The position numbers and the translations under genes were made by a program. Below, one piece after another: positions 2,867 through 48,157 of a DNA stretch of 64,000 nucleotides. The notes under the pieces were generated by a model, which was not told the DNA's origin, did no database searches, and saw only the letters and a program-made list of their open reading frames with translations. The DNA comes from Microcoleus sp. (lineage in GTDB: Bacteria > Cyanobacteriota > Cyanobacteriia > Cyanobacteriales > Microcoleaceae), in assembly GCA_042408215.1 (NCBI GenBank), contig JAYFMW010000010.1, forward strand, positions 64,001 to 128,000, read 5' to 3'. Numbering within the stretch: position 1 is the stretch's first letter; the number at the start of each line of letters is the position of its first letter.

Positions 2867-3108
2867 GTTGAGATTAGCCCTGTTTAAGATTGCCCCTGTG
2901 AGATTGGTACTGCTGAGTCTAGCCACGTTCAGGTTAGCTTCTGTGAGGTCAGAGTCGCTCAAGTTAGCGCCACTGATGTTGGTGACACAGAAGCTAGCTC
3001 CTTTCAACATTGATTAGCTTCATTGAGGTTGATACCTGTAAAATCTCTGTCGCCTTCTGTGTATCTTTTAACGAGTTCAAATCGTTTGATAAGTTCTTCA
3101 GCTTCCAT
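2864..3108 (-). pseudogene. Pentapeptide-repeat protein fragment (third gene of a tandem set)
   Basis: ATG at 3108 gives MEAEELIKR..RYTEGDRDFTGINLNEAN; frameshift near 3010; then A[N/D]LxG repeats up to the junction with tnpB. Confidence 0.75.
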
Positions 3109-3290
3109 TGTTTTTACCTGAATCAAAAATAAATTTTCTCAATTTACAGTAGCCAAACTCGATTTTTTATCCAATAATTTTCTAATATAGCGGTCTTCAA
3201 CCGCAGGAGGTACAAGCCGATCGATGCCCTATGCCCTATGCCCTATGCCCAATCCCCAAGCGTACCTCATTGAACAGAGAAGGGCTATAT

Positions 3291-4868
3291 TTAATCACCG
3301 ATTTGATAAAAATTTTTGACAAACTCAACCACCGTATTGAGTGGGGGGGTTGTGAATCTTTGGGCTTTAATTGCAGGATTAATCGAGGTTTTAGTGACTC
3401 CAGGCAAATTTATTAAATGTCTGCCAAAGTCTGGGTGGTAGTGAACCATCAAAGTTTCGGCGGTGGAATTGGACAGTATAGTTTGGGTCGGCGACTGGAA
3501 AAAACTCGAAACCGCTTCATTATCGAGGGGGATGGGCTGAATTTTGATCTCTCCTATTTTTCTAATTGTTTGGGTCAAAGCCACGCTCAATTGCACTACC
3601 AAATTTGAAAATCTGACCCCAAGGTTATTGCCAGTTTGCGGTTGAATCATCCTCAGTAGAGTAATGAGATTTTTCTGAGTAAATGTCGCGTCACTAAAGG
3701 GAATAATGGCAACGAAAGCTGTGGGAAATAGTTGATCGTCCTGCTCTATTCTAAACGATATGATTGTGCGCCTGGAATTAACTTCGATACTGGGAGGATG
3801 GCTCAAGCCTGGGTATTGACGGGCAATTTGGCGGTAGGTAGCAGCGAGGACAAAGTTAGCGTCGGGGTCGAGGGGTCGATCGACAATAATTTGCACCGTA
3901 GGCGGCGTAGCATTAAAATACTTTTGAGCTGCTTCGGCACTGAACCGCTGAATCAGGCTGCGATCGCCATTCGAGCTCAGATCCACCCAGTCGCAGGTGA
4001 CATCATCTGCTTTCAAACCAAACCTCGATACAGCGTAAATTTTTGCCCCTGTCAGGGCAGCCCCCGTCAAGTCTGCACCCACCCAATCGGCGTGAATCAA
4101 ATTCGCTTGAGTCAAATCCGCGTGTACCAGAGTAGCGTTCAACAGGTTGGCATTGCTCAAATTTGCCCCGTACAAGTTAGCCCCGCTCAATCTCGCCTCA
4201 TCGAGGTCAGCGCCGGTCAAATTCGCCCCGCTGAGGTCAGCCCACCGGAGATTAGCACCTCGTAAGTCAGCGCCGCTGAGGTTAGCTTGAGACAGATTAG
4301 CTTGTCTGAGTTCAGCATTACAGAGATTCACTCCCCGGAGATCCGCGCGGCTCAAGTCGGCCCTGTGCAAGTTGGCCCGTTCCAAATTGGCCGCGGTGAG
4401 GCAAGCACCTCTGAGGTGAGCCCCACTGAAGTCAGTTTGCTCTAGATTGGCTTCTCTGAGAGTTGCCTCTCTCAAATCTGCTTCGCTGAGGTTTGCTCCG
4501 CTGAGGTTAGCACCGCTGAGGTCGGCTCGAATCAGTTCAGCTCTGATCAATGTAGCGTCAACGAGTTGGGCCTCGCGGAGGTCGGATCGAATCAAGTTAG
4601 CGACGTTGAGGATAGCGCCGCTGAGGTTAGCTTTGTGGAGATTGGCACCGCTGAGTCTAGCAACATTGAGTTTGGCTTTTCTCATGTTTGCACCACTGAG
4701 ATTGGTGCCGCTCATGTTGGTGAGGCTCAAGATTGCCTCGCTGAAATTAGCCCCGCTGAGATCGATTCTACTAAGATTGGCCTCGCAAAGGAGGATGGCA
4801 TTAAAATTTCTTTCTCCTGCTGCATATTTGGCTCGGAGTTCTTCGGCATCCATACTGTTCAATCCCAC
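3291..4868 (-). CDS. Pentapeptide-repeat protein with a ~230-aa C-terminal domain of unknown function
   Basis: YAAGERNF cap followed by ~50 A[DN]Lxx repeats. Confidence 0.9.
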   Translation of the reverse strand: MGLNSMDAEELRAKYAAGERNFNAILLCEANLSRIDLSGANFSEAILSLTNMSGTNLSGANMRKAKLNVARLSGANLHKANLSGAILNVANLIRSDLREAQLVDATLIRAELIRADLSGANLSGANLSEADLREATLREANLEQTDFSGAHLRGACLTAANLERANLHRADLSRADLRGVNLCNAELRQANLSQANLSGADLRGANLRWADLSGANLTGADLDEARLSGANLYGANLSNANLLNATLVHADLTQANLIHADWVGADLTGAALTGAKIYAVSRFGLKADDVTCDWVDLSSNGDRSLIQRFSAEAAQKYFNATPPTVQIIVDRPLDPDANFVLAATYRQIARQYPGLSHPPSIEVNSRRTIISFRIEQDDQLFPTAFVAIIPFSDATFTQKNLITLLRMIQPQTGNNLGVRFSNLVVQLSVALTQTIRKIGEIKIQPIPLDNEAVSSFFQSPTQTILSNSTAETLMVHYHPDFGRHLINLPGVTKTSINPAIKAQRFTTPPLNTVVEFVKNFYQIGD

Positions 4869-4929
4869 TGATTTTTTAGTTATAACAAAGCTTTAGAATA
4901 AGCAATTTTTGCAACTTGACGCAATATGC

Positions 4930-6492
4930 TTAGACATCTATATTGTGGAAGCCTTTGATAAAATCTAAAACGTTACTGAGGGTAGTCTCAGCTAATTTGG
5001 TGCTTTCGACTAACTTGGCTGCGGTCGTGTTGTTCGGGTCGTATTTTTTAATCAGGCGCTTGCCGAAGGCTGGGTGGTGATATACACTTAGTTTTTGACC
5101 ACGGGAATTAATTAGTACCATCTGTGTAGGAATCTGAAAGAAGTTGATGCTTTCCCCGATTTTGGGAAAAGAATTCGATATTTTGATTTGGTCTACTTTG
5201 CTGATAGCTTGGTTAAGAGATTTGCTGCACTGTTGAACGTGTTTGGATTCTTTGACGTTGAGATTGCCTGCGTCGTGGGATTGCATCATTTTCATCAAGG
5301 CGATCAGATTTTTTTGAGTGGTTGCCGCGTCGTTAAAGGGAATTATGGAGACGTAAGCGGTGGCGAATAATTTATCATCGCTGTCCATTTGAAAGGCTAG
5401 TACGGTGCGCCGAGAACTAACTTCGATCGTGGGAGGCTGACTTAAACTGGGGTATTGTTGGGTAATTTGGTAATAAGTTGCAGCTAGTGCAAAATGAGCG
5501 CCTTGGTCTAGGGGTGCGTCAATCACAATCCGAACTGTGGGCAAGGACGAGTGAAAAAATTCTTGCGTTCCTCCAGAATTTAACCAGTAAATTTGGCTGT
5601 GGTCGCCGTTGGGACTGAGATCAACCCACTTGCAGGTCATGCCTTCGGTTTTGATGCCGAGCCGCGAAACTGCGTGGAGTTTGGCTCCGGTTAAGGTGGC
5701 TCCGGTTAAGTCGGCTCCAATCCAGTCGGCGTGGATCAGATAGGCATTGGTGAGGTCGGCGTGAACTAAACTGGCATTCAGCAAGTTAGCGTGGCAGAGG
5801 TCGGCTCGGCTGAGGTCTGCGCCGCTCAATTTGGCTTCGCTCAGGTCTGCCCAGCGGAGGTTGCAGCCGCTGAGGATAGCCCAGCGCAGGTTGACACCGC
5901 TGAGGTCGGCTCCGCTGAGGATGGCTTGAGTGAGGTTGGCTTGTCGGAGTTCTGTGCCTCGGAGGTCTGCGCCGCTCAGGTCGGCTCTGCTCAGGTCGGC
6001 TCCTTGTAAGTTGGCTTGTTCGAGGTTGGCTTCGGTCAAGTACGCGCCGCTGAGGTTGGCTCCTCGAAGGTTGGCTTGGCTGAGGTTGGCACCTCGGAGG
6101 GTGGCTTCGGTGAGGGTGGCGCCGCTGAGGTTTGCACCAATGAGGTTTGCACTGCTGAGTTCTGCTCGAATTAACTCGGCTCTGATCAGTTTAGCTCCTG
6201 TGAGTATGGCTTTTTTGAGGTCAACTCGCACTAGGTATGCGACGTTGAGATCCGCGTCGGTGAGGTTGGCGCCACCGAGATGGGCTCCGCTGAGTCTGGC
6301 GATGTTGAGTTTTGCACCGATCAGGTTGGTTTGGCTGAGGTTGGCACCGCTCAGGTTTGCTACACTTAGATTCGCACCCTTGAGGTTGGCTCCACTCAAG
6401 TTGACACCGCTGAGGTTTGCCTCAGTCAGGTTGATTCCGGCAAAGTTTCTCTCTCCGCTGGCATATTTTTTCAGGAGTTCCTCGACTGTCAT
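4930..6492 (-). CDS. Pentapeptide-repeat protein, paralog of 3291..4868
   Basis: YASGERNF cap, ANLSG repeats, and a homologous C-terminal domain (CxWVDLS.NGD.S, PTVxIxxDxPLD, PPxIEV..RRT). Confidence 0.9.
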   Translation of the reverse strand: MTVEELLKKYASGERNFAGINLTEANLSGVNLSGANLKGANLSVANLSGANLSQTNLIGAKLNIARLSGAHLGGANLTDADLNVAYLVRVDLKKAILTGAKLIRAELIRAELSSANLIGANLSGATLTEATLRGANLSQANLRGANLSGAYLTEANLEQANLQGADLSRADLSGADLRGTELRQANLTQAILSGADLSGVNLRWAILSGCNLRWADLSEAKLSGADLSRADLCHANLLNASLVHADLTNAYLIHADWIGADLTGATLTGAKLHAVSRLGIKTEGMTCKWVDLSPNGDHSQIYWLNSGGTQEFFHSSLPTVRIVIDAPLDQGAHFALAATYYQITQQYPSLSQPPTIEVSSRRTVLAFQMDSDDKLFATAYVSIIPFNDAATTQKNLIALMKMMQSHDAGNLNVKESKHVQQCSKSLNQAISKVDQIKISNSFPKIGESINFFQIPTQMVLINSRGQKLSVYHHPAFGKRLIKKYDPNNTTAAKLVESTKLAETTLSNVLDFIKGFHNIDV

Positions 6493-18354: not shown

Positions 18355-18797
18355 AATTGGGCATTGGGCATTGGGCCGAAAAGCATCTTCGCCGAAAAGC
18401 ATTGGGAATAGGGCATTGGGAATTGGGAATTAGTAATTGGTAATTGAAACCAACAAATAACTAATCACTAATGACTAATCACTAATGACTAATGACTAAT
18501 TACGAATTACGAATTACGAATTACGAATTACGAATTCCCCATTCCCAATTACGAATTACGAATTACGAATTACGAATTACGAATTCCCAATTCCCAATTA
18601 CCCATTCCCAATTACCCATTCCCAATGACCAATGACCAATGACCAATGACTACTGACTAATGACTACTGACTAATGACTAATGACTAATGACTAATGACT
18701 AATTACGAATTCCCCATTCCCAATTACCTATTCCCAATGACTAATCACTAATCACTAATGACTAATGACTAATGACTAATGACTAATGACTAATGAC
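18355..18797. repeat. Large mosaic STRR block: (TTACGAA)n, (TGACTAA)n, (CCCAATT)n, (TGACCAA)n
   Basis: ~440 bp of tandem heptamers between convergent genes. Confidence 0.95.
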
Positions 18798-18802
18798 TTC
18801 TT

Positions 18803-24532: not shown

Positions 24533-24676
24533 TTTACAAATCGTTCCAAAACGCTACACTTCTACAAATCATAAGGCAAACTTCAGGCTTATGCTTAACA
24601 ACAGTAACCAACTAGAGCATCAACGCCCTAGTTTAAGGCCACACAACACAACTCAACTGTTTTCACCGCCAAAACC

Positions 24677-24925
24677 GTCAGGAACCCCGTTCTTAAGAGA
24701 CGGGGCTTGTAAGAGTAATCAAACAAGCCGTTCTGACCAGCTATCGTCTTAACTGACTACGTTTTTTGAGTCACGACACCGGGCGAATGCGAAGCTAGTT
24801 CCTTGCTCTGTCGCTGGTGGTTAAACAGTTTTAAGGTCACTGAAACAGTGCTGCCAGCCGGCGCAAGCTCATTAAACATTGGCGAAGCTAACATTACCCC
24901 GAAAGGGAGGCTACCTAAGTAGCAA
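24677..24925 (+). ncRNA. HEARO / omega-RNA scaffold
   Basis: Motifs GACCAGC, GACTACGTT, ACACC..GAATGC..GCTAGTTCC..GCTCTGT, GTTAAACAG, ACAGTG, AACATTGGCGAAG, TTACCCCGAAAGGGAG; compensatory changes relative to the second copy. Confidence 0.8.
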
Positions 24926-25076
24926 AACACTATGCGATCGCGGGCTGTAAGATTTGAAACGGTAACTGTCCCGTTGAAAGTGCATTACAAAAGTACACCG
25001 AATTAAGCAGTCCCAAGGCGGTAGTGATAACTGTAAAGCCGTCCTAAAAGGACGGGGTTTCAAACCCATTTTTCTG
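24677..25076 (+). mobile_element. 400-bp non-autonomous IS200/IS605 (IscB-type) element lacking iscB
   Basis: 5' end GTCA plus hairpin CCCCGTTC-TTAA-GAGACGGGG; 3' hairpin AAAGCCGTCC-TAAAA-GGACGGGGTTTC then ATGA; homologous copy at 38291-38690. Confidence 0.85.
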
Positions 25077-25928
25077 ATGATTGAAAAAATATTAGTAGCC
25101 GTCGCCGGTCGCGGTCTGTGCGAAGAGATGTTTAATATGTTGATGGACATCCCTTCCTTGCAAAAAACCTCTGTCACCGTCTTGCACGTCGTGCCGCCCC
25201 AAGTAACATCCGATGGTATGGCCGACAAGTTGGAAGAAGGAGGCAAGATTTTAGCACAAGCCATCCAATCCTTAAAAATAGATCCCAGCAGAGTTAATCC
25301 TCGACTCAAACAGGGAGACCCCAAAACCACAGTTTGCCAAGTCGCAGAAGAAGAACAATCCGACTTAGTAATCATGGGTTCGCGGGGATTTGGCAGACTG
25401 CAATCAATTCTGGAAAATTCGGTCAGTCAGTACGTTTTCCAGCTAACATCCCGGCCGATGCTGTTGGTAAAAGACGACATTTACGTCAAAAAAATCAAGC
25501 GCGTCATGGTAGCGATCGACAAATCCGAATCCGCCAAACAATCCTTGGATCTAGCCCTATCTTTAGTCAAAGAAGTTGACGGCGGACAGATAATTTTAGT
25601 ACACGTCACCAAAGATTTGACCGGAAAATCCACTGAAGATTTAACAGCAGGTGCTGAAAAAGACCCCGTACTAGCGCCCGCAGTAGCACTCGCGAAACAA
25701 ATGGGAGTTAGCTACCGCTGTGCGAGCGCCACAGGCAAGCCAGGGGAAACAATTTGTCGGTTTACAGACGAAATGAACGCCGACTTATTAGTGATTGGTT
25801 CACCCGATCGCCGTCCTAGCGTTGCCAAGTCCTTTATCGATCTCGATCGACTCCTCGGAAACTCTCTGTCAGACTACGTGCGAGTCTACGCCAATTGTCC
25901 CGTATTGCTAGCCCGGACGACCGGCTAA
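25077..25928 (+). CDS. Tandem-domain universal stress protein
   Basis: KILVAV, DLVIMGSRG, second domain RVMVAID..DLLVIGS..CPVLL. Confidence 0.9.
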   Translation: MIEKILVAVAGRGLCEEMFNMLMDIPSLQKTSVTVLHVVPPQVTSDGMADKLEEGGKILAQAIQSLKIDPSRVNPRLKQGDPKTTVCQVAEEEQSDLVIMGSRGFGRLQSILENSVSQYVFQLTSRPMLLVKDDIYVKKIKRVMVAIDKSESAKQSLDLALSLVKEVDGGQIILVHVTKDLTGKSTEDLTAGAEKDPVLAPAVALAKQMGVSYRCASATGKPGETICRFTDEMNADLLVIGSPDRRPSVAKSFIDLDRLLGNSLSDYVRVYANCPVLLARTTG

Positions 25929-32133: not shown

Positions 32134-32166
32134 GCGATTTGTATTCATTATGGGCGATCGATTCCC

Positions 32167-32786
32167 CTAGCGCGTGTTTTGAAACCCGGAGATCCCCCCT
32201 AGCCCCCCTTAAGAAGGGGGGGACAAGAGAGCATTCAAAGTCACCCCCTACTCCCCTTCTTAAGGGGGATTTAGGGCGATCGAACCCTGGATAAAAACGA
32301 TAAAAACACAAAAAACTCAAAGTCACCCCCTACTCCCCTTCTTAAGGGGGATTTAGGGCGATCGAACCCTGGATAAAAACGATAAAAACACAAAAAACTC
32401 AAAGTCACCCCCTACTCCCCTTCTTAAGGGGGATTTAGGGCGATCGAACCCTGGATAAAAACGATAAAAACACAAAAAACTCAAAGTCACCCCCTACTCC
32501 CCTTCTTAAGGGGGATTTAGGGGGATCGAAACTTCGATACAAACGAGAGAAACCCAAGAAAACTCAAAGTCACCCCCTACTCCCCTTCTTAAGGGGGATT
32601 TAGGGGGATCGAAACTTCGATACAAACGACGAAACCCAAGAAAACTCAAAGTCACCCCCTACTCCCCTTCTTAAGGGGGATTTAGGGAGATCGAAACTTG
32701 GACACAAACGATAGAAACCCAGGAAAACTCAAAGTCCCCCTTCTTAAGGGGGATTTAGGGGGATCGAACCCTCGATACCAACGAGA
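32167..32786. repeat. CCCCCTTCTTAAGGGGG palindromic element amplified into 7 tandem ~82-bp units
   Basis: AAAGTC unit starts at 32237, 32319, 32401, 32483, 32566, 32648 and 32731; single-unit relative at 39777-39915. Confidence 0.9.
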
Positions 32787-32846
32787 TTTCCGAAAGTACA
32801 AATTAAATTAAGCTCAACTCATCTCTTCCATTCACCAATAAAATCA

Positions 32847-36703: not shown

Positions 36704-38290
36704 CTACACAACCACTTCGACTTTCACCTCATCTTCGAGCGCGATTTTCTCCTGCAAAAACAGTGCGACTTGCTCCTCAATTTCTCGCCTCACAATATCG
36801 CGATACTCCACAAAGTGCTCGATTTGCGCGCATACCGCCAGATAACTACTCACCCCACCTAAATTGTATCGGCACATATTCCAGAGATTGCGCCAAAACT
36901 GCCAACGAGTTTTGCGGATGAAACCCTGCCGCCAACAGATAGTCAAAAAGGCACGAATCACGATCCAATCGATCGGTTTATTTGCCCTTTTCCCTTTATT
37001 TGGATAAGTCGCTTCGCCCAGAATACGGTAGTGTCGATAAGCGCGATCGAGAAATTTTTCTGGATCGTACAATTCGTCGAATGCCTCGACAAATTCGCGG
37101 GCAATTTCTTCTAGCGGGCGAGTCGGGACAAAATTCATCAACGTAGTTTGGTTGATATTAGCAGATTTACTGCGAAGCCGCCCTTCCTTTGCCAGTCGAT
37201 GCCAGAGTGCTGTATCCGGCAAGGCTTGCAGCATACTAAACAGTGCAGTCGGAATTGAAGTTTGCTCGACAAACTTGACAATTCTCGCCCCAGCACCTGT
37301 TTTCTCGCCATCAAAGCCGATGATGAAACCAGCCATTACTCGCAAGCCCGATCGGGTAATTGCTAGTACGGCATCGCCGAGAGAATCTCGCGTGTTTTGA
37401 TGTTTTTGAGTCAGCTTTAAACTCTCTTCATCTGGTGTTTCAATTCCCAGAAATACAGCACCAAAATTGCATTGCACCATCATATCCATTAATTCTTGAT
37501 CCTGTGCTATATCGACAGATGCTTCCGTCGCAAAGGAGAAAGGATATTGATGCTCTACCATCCAGGGTAGGAGCTCTTTTAGAAACAGTTTGACATTGCG
37601 TTTATTCCCGATAAAATTATCATCAACCATGAAAATGCTGCGCCGCCAGCCTAACTCATAAAGGCGGTTGAGTTCATTGAGCAATTGTTCTGGTGCTTTG
37701 GTGCGCGGTTTGCGGCCGTAGAGGACAATGATGTCACAGAATTCGCACTGGAAAGGACATCCCCGCGAAAATTGTACCGACATTTCGGCATAAGCATCAA
37801 ATTGCAGCAAATCAAATCGAGGAATCGGGGTGGTGGTAACATCTGGCCTTTCGCCGTTGGCGCGGAATATGCCAGATTGTTCACCTCGGGCGATCGCATC
37901 CACAAACATTGGTAAAGTAATTTCACCCTCATCTAGAATCAAATAATCTGTGCCAACATCTGTCACTTCGTTGGGTAAAGCGGTAGGATAGGGGCCGCCC
38001 ACAGCAACTCGTTTACCCCGCCGTTTTGCTTCCTGAATCTGAGCTAATAAATCTTCCTTTTGGACGATCATCGCAGACAGAATCACCAATTCTGCCCAAT
38101 CCCAGTCAGCTTCTGTCACTGAACTTACATTGCGATCGACTAACTTGAATTCCCATGCTTGGGGTAAAATAGCGGCTACTGTTACCAATCCTAGCGGGGG
38201 TAGCATGGCTTTGCGATCGAGTAATGCTAGGGTTTTCTCAAACGACCAAAAGCTTTTGGGAAAGAGAGGATAGAGGAGTAAAACATTCAT
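36704..38290 (-). CDS. B12-binding radical SAM protein (DUF4070 C-terminus)
   Basis: PPLGL, VAVGGPY, SRGCPFQCEFC, VDDNF, GFIIGFD. Confidence 0.9.
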   Translation of the reverse strand: MNVLLLYPLFPKSFWSFEKTLALLDRKAMLPPLGLVTVAAILPQAWEFKLVDRNVSSVTEADWDWAELVILSAMIVQKEDLLAQIQEAKRRGKRVAVGGPYPTALPNEVTDVGTDYLILDEGEITLPMFVDAIARGEQSGIFRANGERPDVTTTPIPRFDLLQFDAYAEMSVQFSRGCPFQCEFCDIIVLYGRKPRTKAPEQLLNELNRLYELGWRRSIFMVDDNFIGNKRNVKLFLKELLPWMVEHQYPFSFATEASVDIAQDQELMDMMVQCNFGAVFLGIETPDEESLKLTQKHQNTRDSLGDAVLAITRSGLRVMAGFIIGFDGEKTGAGARIVKFVEQTSIPTALFSMLQALPDTALWHRLAKEGRLRSKSANINQTTLMNFVPTRPLEEIAREFVEAFDELYDPEKFLDRAYRHYRILGEATYPNKGKRANKPIDWIVIRAFLTICWRQGFIRKTRWQFWRNLWNMCRYNLGGVSSYLAVCAQIEHFVEYRDIVRREIEEQVALFLQEKIALEDEVKVEVVV

Positions 38291-38690
38291 CAGAAAAATG
38301 GGTTGAAACCCCGTCCTTTTAGGACGGCTTTACGATTTCACTACCGCCTTGGGGCTGTTTAATTTGGTGTACTTTTGTAATGTACTTTTGGTGGGACAGT
38401 TACCACCTCAAATTTCGCAGCCCTGTACGCATAGTGATTTGCTACCGAAGTAGCCTCCCTTTCGGGGTAAGGTTAGCTTGTCGGTCAATGTTATAAGAGC
38501 TTGTGCCGGCCGAAAGCACTGTTCCAGTGACCTTAGAACTGTTTAACCTTCAGCGACAGAGCGGGGAACTAGCTTCGCATTCCGGGGTGTCGTGACTCAA
38601 ATAACGTAGACCTCTAAAGTCTTAGGCTGGTCAGAATGGCTTGTTTGATTACTCTTACAAGCCCCGTCTCTTAAGAGCGGGGTTCCTGAC
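38291..38690 (-). mobile_element. Second 400-bp non-autonomous omega-RNA (HEARO) element
   Basis: Reverse complement begins GTCAGGAACCCCGCTCTTAAGAGACGGGGCTTG and ends AACCCATTTTTCTG|ATGA; colinear with 24677-25076. Confidence 0.85.
38440..38690 (-). ncRNA. HEARO / omega-RNA scaffold, copy 2
   Basis: Same motifs as copy 1, with compensatory substitutions in the stems. Confidence 0.8.
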
Positions 38691-39068
38691 AACAGAAACT
38701 CAAAGATAGGACATCCCCTCGTGAGGTAAAATATTAGGATTTAAGATTATCCTAAAACATTGATATTTTAACACTTTTAGGACTTACGATGGGGAGCCAG
38801 AAACCGGGGTTTTTTTACGAAAATATTTCCTTCGATCCCGCAGATTCGGTAAAAAACCCGGTTTCTTTGGTGGGAGTGCGTCCAAGACTGACTTTAATGG
38901 AGCCGATGTCGATCGCTCTTTAGGCAGGAATTACGCAAGTTTTTAAGTTTTACACTGTCTGTAGTAGTAAGGGCTTGTGGGCGGCACCCTACCTATGGAG
39001 GTTCTGCGTCCAAGACTGTTTCAGAGATGCTTCGCTGCGCTCATAATGACAAAACTATAATGACAAAA

Positions 39069-42198: not shown

Positions 42199-42322
42199 AT
42201 CTTTGATTTTGACGAGGGAAGCGCGCAACGCGATACTTTGGGGAGGCATTTTCCGAGGTTGGGCGATCGAGGTTTGGGGAAAAATGAGATAGCTACAGCT
42301 AGCGGTGATTCGGGGGGGTAAA

Positions 42323-45300
42323 GTTTCAATCCCTGATAGGGTTTTAGGTGTTTTCCGGCATCAGCATCATAAACCCTCGAAATTCCATTCCGATCTAAAG
42401 TTTCAATCCCTGATAGGGTTTTAGGTGTTTTCCGGCGTAACCATAAATCCCATCGGTGCGAGTGCGACACCAGTTTCAATCCCTGATAGGGTTTTAGGTG
42501 TTTTCCGGCGCGAGGCTGTGACCCATTTGCTTCGCAGCCAGCGAGTTTCAATCCCTGATAGGGTTTTAGGTGTTTTCCGGCACGAAATTCCTTGTAGTAG
42601 TGGCTCTACATCCGGTTTCAATCCCTGATAGGGTTTTAGGTGTTTTCCGGCCAGTCCACCAGTTGGAATCCTTGCTGCACCTTGTTTCAATCCCTGATAG
42701 GGTTTTAGGTGTTTTCCGGCCGAGAAAGCGATCGCCCACCGTGAGCAATCGCGGAGTTTCAATCCCTGATAGGGTTTTAGGTGTTTTCCGGCTCGCCATC
42801 CTGAATTAGTTCCAATTGATGCAATTGTTTCAATCCCTGATAGGGTTTTAGGTGTTTTCCGGCCTGCGATCGCGTCGTACACTGTTCCCCATAAGTGGTT
42901 TATAGGAAAACCCCGGCGCTTAGTTAGCCTATCCCCTGCGATCGCGTCGTACACTGTTCCCCATAAGTGGTTTCAATCCCTGATAGGGTTTTAGGTGTTT
43001 TCCGGCACCAGAGCCGCAAAACGCGCGGGAAGAAGAAGCAGTTTCAATCCCTGATAGGGTTTTAGGTGTTTTCCGGCTGGATGAGCTTAGTTGCGCATCG
43101 CCAGATCGGTTTCAATCCCTGATAGGGTTTTAGGTGTTTTCCGGCGACGCTTCCTTCGTAGCCTGTTGCTGTATATTGGTTTCAATCCCTGATAGGGTTT
43201 TAGGTGTTTTCCGGCCAGCAACGGTAAAATCGCTAACAATTTATGAAGTTTCAATCCCTGATAGGGTTTTAGGTGTTTTCCGGCTTGGAATACGTGCCAC
43301 AGGAAGTGGGACCTTGCGCGTTTCAATCCCTGATAGGGTTTTAGGTGTTTTCCGGCCCAGAAAGTGATCGTTACTTGAGGCATTTGCTGCGTTTCAATCC
43401 CTGATAGGGTTTTAGGTGTTTTCCGGCACCATGCTTTCACATTCTGCTCAAATAATCATGTTTCAATCCCTGATAGGGTTTTAGGTGTTTTCCGGCACAC
43501 CCAACAAACACCGGCAAACCGAGGCGGGCGACGTTTCAATCCCTGATAGGGTTTTAGGTGTTTTCCGGCGGCACCGGCAACGACTTACACAACCTCGAAT
43601 AATGCAGCGTTTCAATCCCTGATAGGGTTTTAGGTGTTTTCCGGCGCGTGGAGTTGCAGCGGGACATAAAAGCCTCGAAGTTTCAATCCCTGATAGGGTT
43701 TTAGGTGTTTTCCGGCGTCAATCAGAACTTTGCCGAATAAGCTACTGCATATCGTTTCAATCCCTGATAGGGTTTTAGGTGTTTTCCGGCTACGTTGCCG
43801 CTGAGTTCGGCAAGTCGTCTTGTGTTTCAATCCCTGATAGGGTTTTAGGTGTTTTCCGGCTTGTCGTGGCTGATGCGCGCGTGGTAGAATCGATGGTTTC
43901 AATCCCTGATAGGGTTTTAGGTGTTTTCCGGCAAATCTGTAGCTTCTTCTCAAGGATGGGCTTTAGTTTCAATCCCTGATAGGGTTTTAGGTGTTTTCCG
44001 GCGCAGCGGGACATAAAAGCCTCAAAAACGCGACCGCGGGTTTCAATCCCTGATAGGGTTTTAGGTGTTTTCCGGCGGTCAGCATCTCTGTTTGGCGATC
44101 GAGATATGAGTTTCAATCCCTGATAGGGTTTTAGGTGTTTTCCGGCACATCAGACCTGAGAATATCCTGGAATAGTTTGGGTTTCAATCCCTGATAGGGT
44201 TTTAGGTGTTTTCCGGCAAGTGTTGTAACCTTCCTCAAGTTTTTTAGCTGTTTCAATCCCTGATAGGGTTTTAGGTGTTTTCCGGCACGATTGCAGTAAA
44301 TAACATTATGTCTGAATATGTTTCAATCCCTGATAGGGTTTTAGGTGTTTTCCGGCGATTCGTGCAGACTTATCGCGTCACCATTACGTTTCAATCCCTG
44401 ATAGGGTTTTAGGTGTTTTCCGGCCTGGTGAAAGCCTTAAGAGATGAGCTTTTGGTGGGTTTCAATCCCTGATAGGGTTTTAGGTGTTTTCCGGCGTGAT
44501 TCTGATAATTCAGATCAGTCAGCGGCCGCTGAACTGGATGCGTTTCAATCCCTGATAGGGTTTTAGGTGTTTTCCGGCGCTCTTAATGAATATCAGAAAG
44601 CTATTAAAGATTAGTTTCAATCCCTGATAGGGTTTTAGGTGTTTTCCGGCGCGTAGAGAGCTTTGGGTGCAGCCAAGTACCTCCGTTTCAATCCCTGATA
44701 GGGTTTTAGGTGTTTTCCGGCTGAATAGGGATAACGGTGATTTGGTTGTTGAAGTTTCAATCCCTGATAGGGTTTTAGGTGTTTTCCGGCACCGCATAGA
44801 CTCGTCGCCCCGCAAGGCTTTTAGACGTTTCAATCCCTGATAGGGTTTTAGGTGTTTTCCGGCCGGTAAATCCGGTCACAGCATTACCCGCAGTTTGTTT
44901 CAATCCCTGATAGGGTTTTAGGTGTTTTCCGGCGATTGGAGCTCAGAAAATCTAGCCTCTTTCAGATTTAGTTTCAATCCCTGATAGGGTTTTAGGTGTT
45001 TTCCGGCCCAAGCAGTACGATCGCCTAGAAATCCTCACCGGTTTCAATCCCTGATAGGGTTTTAGGTGTTTTCCGGCGATCGCCTCTGGAGTAGGTGTTA
45101 TCCCAGGGACACTAGTTTCAATCCCTGATAGGGTTTTAGGTGTTTTCCGGCCTGACCAAGTGGTCGGTAAAAAAGATCGCCAGAGAGTTTCAATCCCTGA
45201 TAGGGTTTTAGGTGTTTTCCGGCCGCGAACGATGGCGCTCAGGGCTACAATTCGGGCAAAGTTTCAATCCCTGATAGGGTTTTAGGTGTTTTCCGGCCTG

Positions 45301-48157
45301 CGAAGTATGCCGAGCTTGGCGCTTCTTACCGGCGTTTCAATCCCTGATAGGGTTTTAGGTGTTTTCCGGCATTTGACCATGATCTGCTTGGACTCTTCGG
45401 AGCACGGTTTCAATCCCTGATAGGGTTTTAGGTGTTTTCCGGCCCTCAGTGACTCGCAAACTCTGCTCAATTTAGTGTTTCAATCCCTGATAGGGTTTTA
45501 GGTGTTTTCCGGCCGCGAATAGCCGCAATCAGCTTATGTCAAACAATGTTTCAATCCCTGATAGGGTTTTAGGTGTTTTCCGGCGAGTCGCAAGACTTGT
45601 CTGCGTTCCATATACGCGTTTCAATCCCTGATAGGGTTTTAGGTGTTTTCCGGCTAGTGGATCCCGTGCCTAAATTGAGGTTCAGAATAGTTTCAATCCC
45701 TGATAGGGTTTTAGGTGTTTTCCGGCAGCCGTTGCTGATACTTTGCACAGGCTGAAATGGAGTGTTTCAATCCCTGATAGGGTTTTAGGTGTTTTCCGGC
45801 TCATAGCACGATACCAGGATACTAACTATCTGTTGTTTCAATCCCTGATAGGGTTTTAGGTGTTTTCCGGCTTTACCGCTAGTTCTTCAAGCCTGCTACT
45901 TGAAGGTTTCAATCCCTGATAGGGTTTTAGGTGTTTTCCGGCAAGTTTTCCTCTATTCTGCTGGGTTTTAGCTCGGGTTTCAATCCCTGATAGGGTTTTA
46001 GGTGTTTTCCGGCAAATAGGACAATACTACCATAGCATAAACCAATGGTTTCAATCCCTGATAGGGTTTTAGGTGTTTTCCGGCAATCTAAAAAAACCAC
46101 CCTCAAGAATAGCACTGTATCGTTTCAATCCCTGATAGGGTTTTAGGTGTTTTCCGGCCAGAGTAGATCCAAAAATTGCCCCATCCCCACAAGTTTCAAT
46201 CCCTGATAGGGTTTTAGGTGTTTTCCGGCGCAACCCCCGTTGGGTCTCCAGCAACCGTTACCGGTTTCAATCCCTGATAGGGTTTTAGGTGTTTTCCGGC
46301 AAATGTTTGTGAACCTAAACCACCAACTCCTTCTCCGTTTCAATCCCTGATAGGGTTTTAGGTGTTTTCCGGCATTTGCCGGCAAATACTTTGCTGGGTA
46401 GGGATACGTTTCAATCCCTGATAGGGTTTTAGGTGTTTTCCGGCCATTAGTGGACAAACAATTGCATACCATCCATAACTGTTTCAATCCCTGATAGGGT
46501 TTTAGGTGTTTTCCGGCTTAGAAAAAAATGTGCCTGTACCCGCCGGACTGCATGTTTCAATCCCTGATAGGGTTTTAGGTGTTTTCCGGCTGATTGAACG
46601 CCTACACTTGTCGCAAAAATAGCTAGTTTCAATCCCTGATAGGGTTTTAGGTGTTTTCCGGCAGAGTATTTGTCCTCTTTTTTGAATGGTTACAATCGTA
46701 AGTTTCAATCCCTGATAGGGTTTTAGGTGTTTTCCGGCATTGTATTGGGCGGTGGCAGAAGCAATCCGAGGTTGTTTCAATCCCTGATAGGGTTTTAGGT
46801 GTTTTCCGGCTCGATCGCAAAAATAATACAGGAGACTGGAATGAGTTTCAATCCCTGATAGGGTTTTAGGTGTTTTCCGGCCCGTTTTGGCCATATTATC
46901 GCCGTCAATGGTTTTGTTTCAATCCCTGATAGGGTTTTAGGTGTTTTCCGGCTTGCTGAAACCGACCGCCGGAAATGCTACTGCCGGTTTCAATCCCTGA
47001 TAGGGTTTTAGGTGTTTTCCGGCTTGTACTCTAGAATCAAGCCTTATACAGAGAGATTGTTTCAATCCCTGATAGGGTTTTAGGTGTTTTCCGGCGCAAA
47101 CCCATCACAATGCCACCAGATTCAATCAGTTTCAATCCCTGATAGGGTTTTAGGTGTTTTCCGGCTTAATTAAGAGTCGCGACGACGCTAAGGGTTGGGT
47201 TTCAATCCCTGATAGGGTTTTAGGTGTTTTCCGGCTGAATCCTTTCCTACCTTGAAGTAGTGCTGGCGTTTCAATCCCTGATAGGGTTTTAGGTGTTTTC
47301 CGGCAAAAAACTCGCTGCAATATTTGGAGAGCGCGTCAGTTTCAATCCCTGATAGGGTTTTAGGTGTTTTCCGGCGTCGATTTGTAATCAGAGTCTATTT
47401 CATTGGAAGTTTCAATCCCTGATAGGGTTTTAGGTGTTTTCCGGCGCGGTGGCAACTTCATTACCATTCAATGACCAAGTGTTTCAATCCCTGATAGGGT
47501 TTTAGGTGTTTTCCGGCATGCAGGCAAGAAATTTCATGAGGATAAAAATCTGTTTCAATCCCTGATAGGGTTTTAGGTGTTTTCCGGCACAACAACGGGG
47601 TAGCCCAACTAAATACGCTTGTCAGTTTCAATCCCTGATAGGGTTTTAGGTGTTTTCCGGCCTTCCTGTTTGAGTGCAAGCAAGACAGGATTTGAGTTTC
47701 AATCCCTGATAGGGTTTTAGGTGTTTTCCGGCTTGGGCACTGAGTGCAACACTCGGCTGTTAAAGGTGTTTCAATCCCTGATAGGGTTTTAGGTGTTTTC
47801 CGGCGGTTGATCGTGGGGGCGATCGGTGCGGCCGCAAGGTTTCAATCCCTGATAGGGTTTTAGGTGTTTTCCGGCGCGCAAGCCCAGCTGCAAAAACAGT
47901 CATACAAAGTTTCAATCCCTGATAGGGTTTTAGGTGTTTTCCGGCCTTTAATGTTCGGTCTAAGGCGCGCACGGATTCTGTTTCAATCCCTGATAGGGTT
48001 TTAGGTGTTTTCCGGCGCTAGCCCCATTACTCCCGGCGGGAGTCATCCGGTTTCAATCCCTGATAGGGTTTTAGGTGTTTTCCGGCTGCAAGTTGGCGCT
48101 CGGAATTCTGTAAACTCCGCGTTTCAATCCCTGATAGGGTTTTAGGTGTTTTCCGGC
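42323..48157 (-). CRISPR. CRISPR array with no cas genes in the window: 81 copies of a 37-bp repeat, probably type I-D
   Basis: Plus-strand repeat GTTTCAATCCCTGATAGGGTTTTAGGTGTTTTCCGGC; crRNA sense GCCGGAAAACACCTAAAACCCTATCAGGGATTGAAAC with a CCCT/AGGG hairpin and ATTGAAAC handle; counted by hand; spacers ~31-46 bp plus one 106-bp anomaly. Confidence 0.97.

Follow-up and report, generated by a model that had tools for sequence, protein, structure and literature searches.

Gene-less IscB-type transposable elements of a Microcoleus genome often lie at host start codons, a bias lacking in TnpB-type elements with the same target

The window analyzed here, a stretch of 64,000 nucleotides from a Microcoleus sp. 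contig (JAYFMW010000010.1, positions 64,001 to 128,000), carries two elements of 400 nt each that are 87% identical and lie on opposite strands, each directly in front of a gene (Table 1). Element 1 precedes a universal stress protein (USP; 283 aa, PF00582) and element 2 a B12-binding radical SAM protein of 528 aa. Both share the 3' end TTTTTCTG, which stands immediately 5' of the ATGA that opens each reading frame (25077 and 38290). A first-pass annotation had placed two omega-RNA elements exactly at these start codons, in sense orientation and with both reading frames intact, and this description holds: the ends are base-exact at both ATGA sites, and the starts are real as judged from orthologues.

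Table 1. Window coordinates of the two elements, their parts and the adjoining genes
Feature	Position	Strand	Basis
Native USP 5' leader, abuts element 1; predicted guide position	24657..24676	+	Direct join to ATGA in 17/18 same-genus relatives; guide geometry after Meers et al. 2023, section 5
Element 1, gene-less IscB-type IS200/IS605, 400 nt	24677..25076	+	Boundaries from sister copies and empty alleles
Omega-RNA (HEARO) scaffold of element 1, opens with transposon right end	24677..24897	+	Rfam RF02033, 141 bits
Structured 3' module of element 1 in place of iscB; mini-ORF 24932-25006	24898..25030	+	Covarying pairs, common to at least 16 solo copies
Transposon left end of element 1: hairpin 25039-25055, tetramer 25058-25061, U-rich tail	25038..25076	+	DNA fold; tetramer-target covariation
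Universal stress protein gene; first four bases ATGA = target and predicted TAM	25077..25928	+	Sequence, PF00582, orthologues
Native radical-SAM leader, abuts element 2; predicted guide position	38691..38710	-	Direct join to ATGA in G005 and G008
Element 2, gene-less IscB-type, 400 nt	38291..38690	-	Rfam match, sister copies, empty alleles
Omega-RNA (HEARO) scaffold of element 2	38467..38690	-	Rfam RF02033, 139 bits
Left end of element 2: hairpin 38311-38327, guide tetramer 38305-38308	38291..38328	-	Sequence, DNA fold
B12-binding radical SAM gene (DUF4070); ATGA 38290-38287 = target and predicted TAM	36704..38290	-	Sequence, orthologues

Both copies match the HEARO RNA over its full length and above the Rfam cut-off of 83 bits, but here no HNH/IscB reading frame follows the scaffold, and its place is taken by a structured module of 130 nt that has no Rfam match. 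A tblastn search found no IscB coding sequence inside the window elements, which hold only mini-ORFs of 24 and 10 codons and thus are not autonomous or full ISC transposons, which encode IscB; nor does any intron family stand among their Rfam matches, which separates them from IStrons. Subterminal hairpins are found at both ends (DNA folds), that of the right end overlapping the first helix of the scaffold, and the DNA guide tetramer of element 1 reads TTTC (GAAA on the opposite strand). A weak terminator-like stem lies at 25055-25067, just upstream of the USP ATG; a search for one in element 2 found none. On sequence grounds we assign the window elements to the non-autonomous IscB-type IS200/IS605 elements (omega-RNA PATEs), because they combine a HEARO scaffold at the right end, terminal hairpins, a scarless ATGA target, a covarying tetramer and the lack of any gene inside. 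Solo elements of this genome carry two conserved kinds of 3' module, neither of which resembles Rfam families or iscB: in the first, GGAGG, a hairpin and ATG are followed by a mini-ORF, mostly of 10 codons, within a multi-branch stem, and the second consists of tandem hairpins with CAACCA loops. That the solo module might be an iscB remnant or a known RNA was rejected, tblastn and Rfam giving no support. The "common 400-nt leader" of the first-pass annotation stands as a family resemblance only, since the elements measure 335-580 nt and carry several end types.

Relatives (n = 30) were searched for both loci. The USP locus is present in all 18 same-genus genomes, with an identical N-terminus at this ATG in 18/18 orthologues; in 17 of these the native leader is joined straight to the ATG, and the element is present in one (G005). 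At the radical-SAM locus, the two close orthologues, in G005 and G008 (96-98%), have no insertion where the join was predicted, and the remaining matches, 75-81% identical, are less informative for the empty allele. The orthologue N-termini and the exact empty alleles show that both starts are real and both insertions scarless, bearing out the earlier expectations that the host frame is spared, the insertion ending before the ATG, and that relatives retain empty alleles. At 10 further loci an empty allele was found in relatives, of which seven are exact, two are off by a few A's and one (ftrV) holds a 26-nt older stub. The ftrV start carries different-ended elements in three genomes (G000:C7:267395; L145; L344), and in the first of these the newer element lies behind the stub of the older one, a case of repeated targeting of one start codon. 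RNA-library contigs (run X4) span the flank-scaffold and end-USP junctions of element 1 without differences, these contigs being strandless and possibly of multi-transcript or DNA origin, and the empty joint of element 1 also occurs in the contigs of one RNA run, which may likewise derive from DNA.

The left-end hairpin beside the ATG is common to about 150-200 elements of the genome, and across ~120 related ends the tetramer at its foot covaries with the target. Non-omega ends pair CTTT with GTAA (40), TTTT with ATAA (31), CTTG with GTCA (21), TTTC with ATGA (7) and CTTC with GTGA (6), and the A-type ends of omega elements pair TTTC with ATGA. In IS608 the target is read by a guide tetramer located at the foot of the hairpin (Morero et al. 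2018, PMC5934647). The IS608 GL/CL pair AAAG-TTAC, when reverse-complemented, gives CTTT-GTAA and thus recurs here 40 times, and the omega elements use the variant GAAA-TCAT. Because CTTT-GTAA is the IS608 pair read on the other strand, the ATGA target appears to be fixed by the DNA guide tetramer of the transposase. The earlier naming of ATGA as the target is therefore supported by both the scarless joins and the TTTC-ATGA code. An early loose pattern for type B ends gave many false matches and was superseded by BLAST-based assignment. The genome holds 13 strong Y1 TnpA matches (PF01797) and at least 150 tnpB matches (150 of 253 candidates scored); PF14239 matches lie outside the window elements and include eight full-length IscB proteins that have catalytic motifs and are encoded in elements ending at ATGA. 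ATGA is not the target of a second iscB family (G000:C14:57156, C7:93934), and one copy of this family sits just 5' of the GAGG ribosome-binding motif of pntB, with the motif and the GTG start intact. Another iscB family, whose HEARO match starts GCTATC or GCTATT, adjoins CGATCG instead of ATGA (G000:C30:110370, C5:414884, C5:441871, C21:57951, C3:172214), which we take to be the core of the cyanobacterial HIP1 repeat. Repeats of ~21 nt are inserted in the hairpin loops of many element ends (e.g., G000:C28:196605, C6:211487, C1:90990) and presumably correspond to cyanobacterial small dispersed repeats, which they resemble.

To place the two window cases in a genomic frame, we counted all copies. 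There are 70 HEARO matches in the genome (64 above the cut-off), 45 of them solo and 25 with iscB sequence downstream, and the census set comprised the 58 copies (42 solo, 16 iscB) with a recognizable end followed by ATGA; the 12 left out were nine without an end, one ending at GTGA and two of an other-target family. Genes came from a dicodon model (5,778 genes, 77% coding) with imperfect start calls, and the home-made gene caller set the start of the radical-SAM gene 84 nt downstream of its true position; one mechanical start rule was applied to the empty sites reconstructed in silico and to every other ATGA site. This rule was passed by 38/58 omega copies (29/42 solo, 9/16 iscB), against a background of 17.8% of non-coding and 5.9% of all ATGA sites (binomial p about 1e-15). 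Adding petL and petM (NCBIfam), which are too short for the rule, brings the count to 40/58, and requiring the ATG to be the first of its frame removes two, leaving 38/58 against a background of 12.9%; one of the copies so dropped struck a sheath gene at codon 5. Family models start at or near residue 1 for rpsP, rplS, fusA, chlB, pntA, aroF, cobH, psb27, ftrV and others. Of the 43 copies located no more than 60 nt upstream of a sense gene, 40 lie at the start codon itself, compared to 66-74% expected (p about 0.002). Even among the 18 non-start omega copies, 12 lie in sense near a gene (12/18), compared to a background of 26% and 3/15 TnpB-type elements. The age trend expected under retention was not significant, start shares being 8/15 for young copies (recent and near-identical) and 32/43 for older ones (p=0.19), nor did solo copies (31/42) and iscB copies (9/16) differ significantly (p=0.22). 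Siting of omega copies at start codons thus exceeds chance, and the genome-wide fraction that the first-pass annotation had proposed as a check (38-40/58 vs 13-18% of non-coding ATGA) favors its observation, with the enrichment confined to the omega orientation.

That confinement is provided by TnpB-type elements, which share the ATGA target and related hairpins, begin with TTGAC, and direct tnpB or its RNA away from the ATG. In this small control set, 21 elements sorted by hand, five (5/21) lie at starts, one lies within a gene (whose Pfam match begins at position 127) and 15 open no gene, a distribution that matches background (p=0.40) and differs from that of the omega type (Fisher p=0.0006; p=0.005 by the rule alone). 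The control was repeated in other genomes by a scan for one end type in 5 of the 64 parts of a genome collection, which returned 118 loci (29 omega, 21 TnpA/TnpB, 68 unclassified). Once contig-cut or masked rows were left out (5 omega, 1 TnpA/TnpB, 1 unclassified), starts were occupied by 16/24 omega and 4/20 TnpA/TnpB elements (p=0.003), and by 19/67 unclassified ones; without two loci shared with this genome the comparison is 14/22 vs 4/20 (p=0.006). Many of the named omega loci elsewhere come from one group of filamentous cyanobacteria, and further named genera are mixed, with Dolichospermum, Scytonema, Lyngbya and Tychonema at starts and Rivularia, Phormidium and Calothrix not. Omega elements of unequal length occupy one start in two other genomes (L142, L150), and its N-terminus resembles what we assume to be psbD (photosystem II D2). 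A supposed separate class with tnpB reading toward the ATG was rejected, as each is an independent TnpB element that has inserted into an older end stub; such nested, other-target elements in start-codon stubs lie at G000:C12:73845, C6:1057935 and C6:578171.

We propose, with a probability of roughly 0.6, that gene-less IscB-type elements pile up at starts because a copy must be transcribed from a host promoter to make a guide and return after excision. The start bias would then be a filter on retention, probably not aiming by the transposase, since TnpB-type elements with the same target lack it. A host-encoded TnpA would read the target via the end tetramer, GAAA pairing with TCAT, and insert 5' of any ATGA, and most insertions within coding sequence would be purged. 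As suggested by the published model and the orientation control, TnpA would also remove elements precisely. A sense copy behind a promoter would yield a transcript of native leader (the guide) and scaffold that could load IscB from elsewhere in the genome; the loaded IscB would cut the empty leader+ATGA allele, the element would be copied back, and copies without transcription would disappear. The start codon would be the commonest of the transcribed non-coding ATGA sites and probably the best tolerated, and TnpB-type elements, whose RNA is made from inside, would need no promoter-fed position. With regard to the suggestion that the native 5' UTR serves as the guide, the native leader does lie 5' of the scaffold, in guide position, and its guide role is predicted. 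That the element "uses" the start codon holds in the sense of enrichment, whereas aimed use looks less likely than selective retention in view of the unbiased TnpB-type elements. Insertion aimed by TnpA, perhaps together with the IscB ribonucleoprotein, at ATGA in translation-initiation regions would account for the enrichment already seen in young copies (8/15) and for an ftrV start struck more than once by different end types, but we regard it as improbable given the lack of any preference in TnpB-type elements, which follow the same tetramer code, have related hairpins and presumably rely on the same TnpA, and given that TnpA geometry would need a single-stranded template strand, whereas transcription bubbles would expose the opposite one.

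Transcription alone leaves a residual start preference within leaders unexplained, and this preference would be expected if no nuclease were involved and elements merely outlasted others at starts, sense elements being transparent to the host transcript and sloppy deletion killing the gene, so that they persist longer than copies in dispensable DNA. Some 14 eroded stubs that consist of an end alone and immediately precede starts (hisG, hetR, rpmJ, adenosine deaminase, PP2C, branching enzyme and others) also agree with such tolerance and deletion shelter, as does the nominally higher start share of solo over iscB copies. We nevertheless consider it unlikely, if a serious contender, as it should enrich TnpB-type elements too unless harm cancels exactly, and these are at background (5/21, 4/20); recent near-identical copies are already at starts; and scaffold pairing is kept across solo copies. 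Variable pairs of the solo scaffold are 95% canonical, compared to 83% in shuffles (maximum 85%) and about 35% in slid controls, a figure inflated by the kinship of copies. Retention through trans homing has points against it as well: the window scaffolds are just 79-82% identical to the nearest scaffold of an intact iscB, so that cross-use is a presumption; the terminator-like stem at 25055-25067; and the lack of a significant age trend.

Other ways in which a start could be favored were considered. A replacement ribosome-binding site as a general requirement was rejected: complementarity to the anti-SD is strong in end types C, D and E (-6 to -10 kcal/mol), weak in B and absent in A, yet A-type ends, which include both window elements, still lie at starts without a Shine-Dalgarno (start rates A 8/13, B 23/29, D 5/10), and a strong SD precedes just 31% of the host starts sampled. 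Guides directed toward other chromosomal sites were likewise rejected, with no excess of 10-mer+ATGA matches (4 vs 5.3 in controls); the sole 14-mer guide match corresponds to the empty allele that a duplicate haplotype contig carries. Domestication as a cis-regulatory leader co-regulating the affected genes seems to us very improbable: conserved structured 3' modules with a recurring 10-codon mini-ORF and an aroF insertion that two other species share point that way, but most insertions are missing in close relatives (USP 17/18 empty), the target genes have no common function and the element ends vary. The hisG stub is shared by one relative and lacking in three. A second route to a start-codon junction could exist on G000:C23, which represents part of C28 (G000:C28:247500-284400) as a second, near-identical haplotype. 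There an element with a broken iscB stands in place of the conserved 191-nt leader of an RpaA-like response regulator, both breakpoints have ATGA, and C28 carries the empty allele; the deletion was seen this once, and misassembly could account for it.

The element class, the N|ATGA target, the homing model and the orientation bias are published. ISC transposons of Microcystis aeruginosa (ISC1-1_MA, IS605B-1_MA) have the N|ATGA target and share with the elements described here a 5'-GTCA start, insertion 5' of ATGA without target duplication, and ends in common with TnpB elements (5'-TT start, antisense tnpB); unlike those, most copies here are without iscB, and the main text of that paper reports no landing bias and no "start codon" (Kapitonov et al. 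2016, PMC4810608). In Geobacillus ISGst elements, TnpA excision is faster than integration, IscB and TnpB cut the donor joint, TnpB raises retention, IscB guides need transcription from outside the element, and iscB, not tnpB, shows a same-orientation bias relative to the upstream gene (Meers et al. 2023, 10.1101/2023.03.14.532601). The elements here resemble these and their PATEs in the TAM (TTCAT, that is ATGAA on the opposite strand), the guide from the 5' flank, donor-joint cutting for retention and protein-less copies served in trans, all of these being predicted for the present elements; the parts of that report considered here describe an upstream bias only, whereas base-exact start landing and a within-genome TnpB control are given here. 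IStrons are also IS200/IS605-derived and spare host genes while homing (homing here being predicted), but splice out of mRNA, whereas the elements here do not enter the ORF, and the Rfam search of them revealed no intron (review, PMC13565253). At the level of titles and abstract openings, we found no report of start-codon landing in the searched literature. Added here are the orientation control of omega against TnpB-type elements and the replication of this control in other genomes.

Two element types that share a transposase code and a target and differ only in their need for a host promoter allow the model of IscB retention to be tested quantitatively in nature, and only the host-promoter-dependent type ends on start codons. 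If trans homing is true, selfish elements would have a third means of persisting within essential transcription units, one that needs neither splicing nor a promoter of their own, and transposon ends would have a route to the 5' leaders of housekeeping genes. More tentatively, at somewhat less than even odds, guide-only RNA parasites drawing on one shared IscB pool may hold the starts of about 40 genes, essential ones included; the leader as guide would destroy the clean allele and act as a ratchet, and eroded copies would leave their hairpins as a permanent initiation region (hisG, hetR, rpmJ), rewriting leaders genome-wide and possibly tying expression to IscB binding. For annotation, HEARO matches upstream of genes in such genomes mark mobile elements, not riboswitches. 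Elsewhere in the window, a CRISPR-like array at about 42290-48150 comprises at least 69 copies of ~37-nt repeats with ~35-nt spacers, and 82-nt tandem hairpin repeats, 7-nt tandem repeats and pentapeptide-repeat-like genes (15-nt period) occur at 32150-32810, 18390-18800 and 2900-6400.
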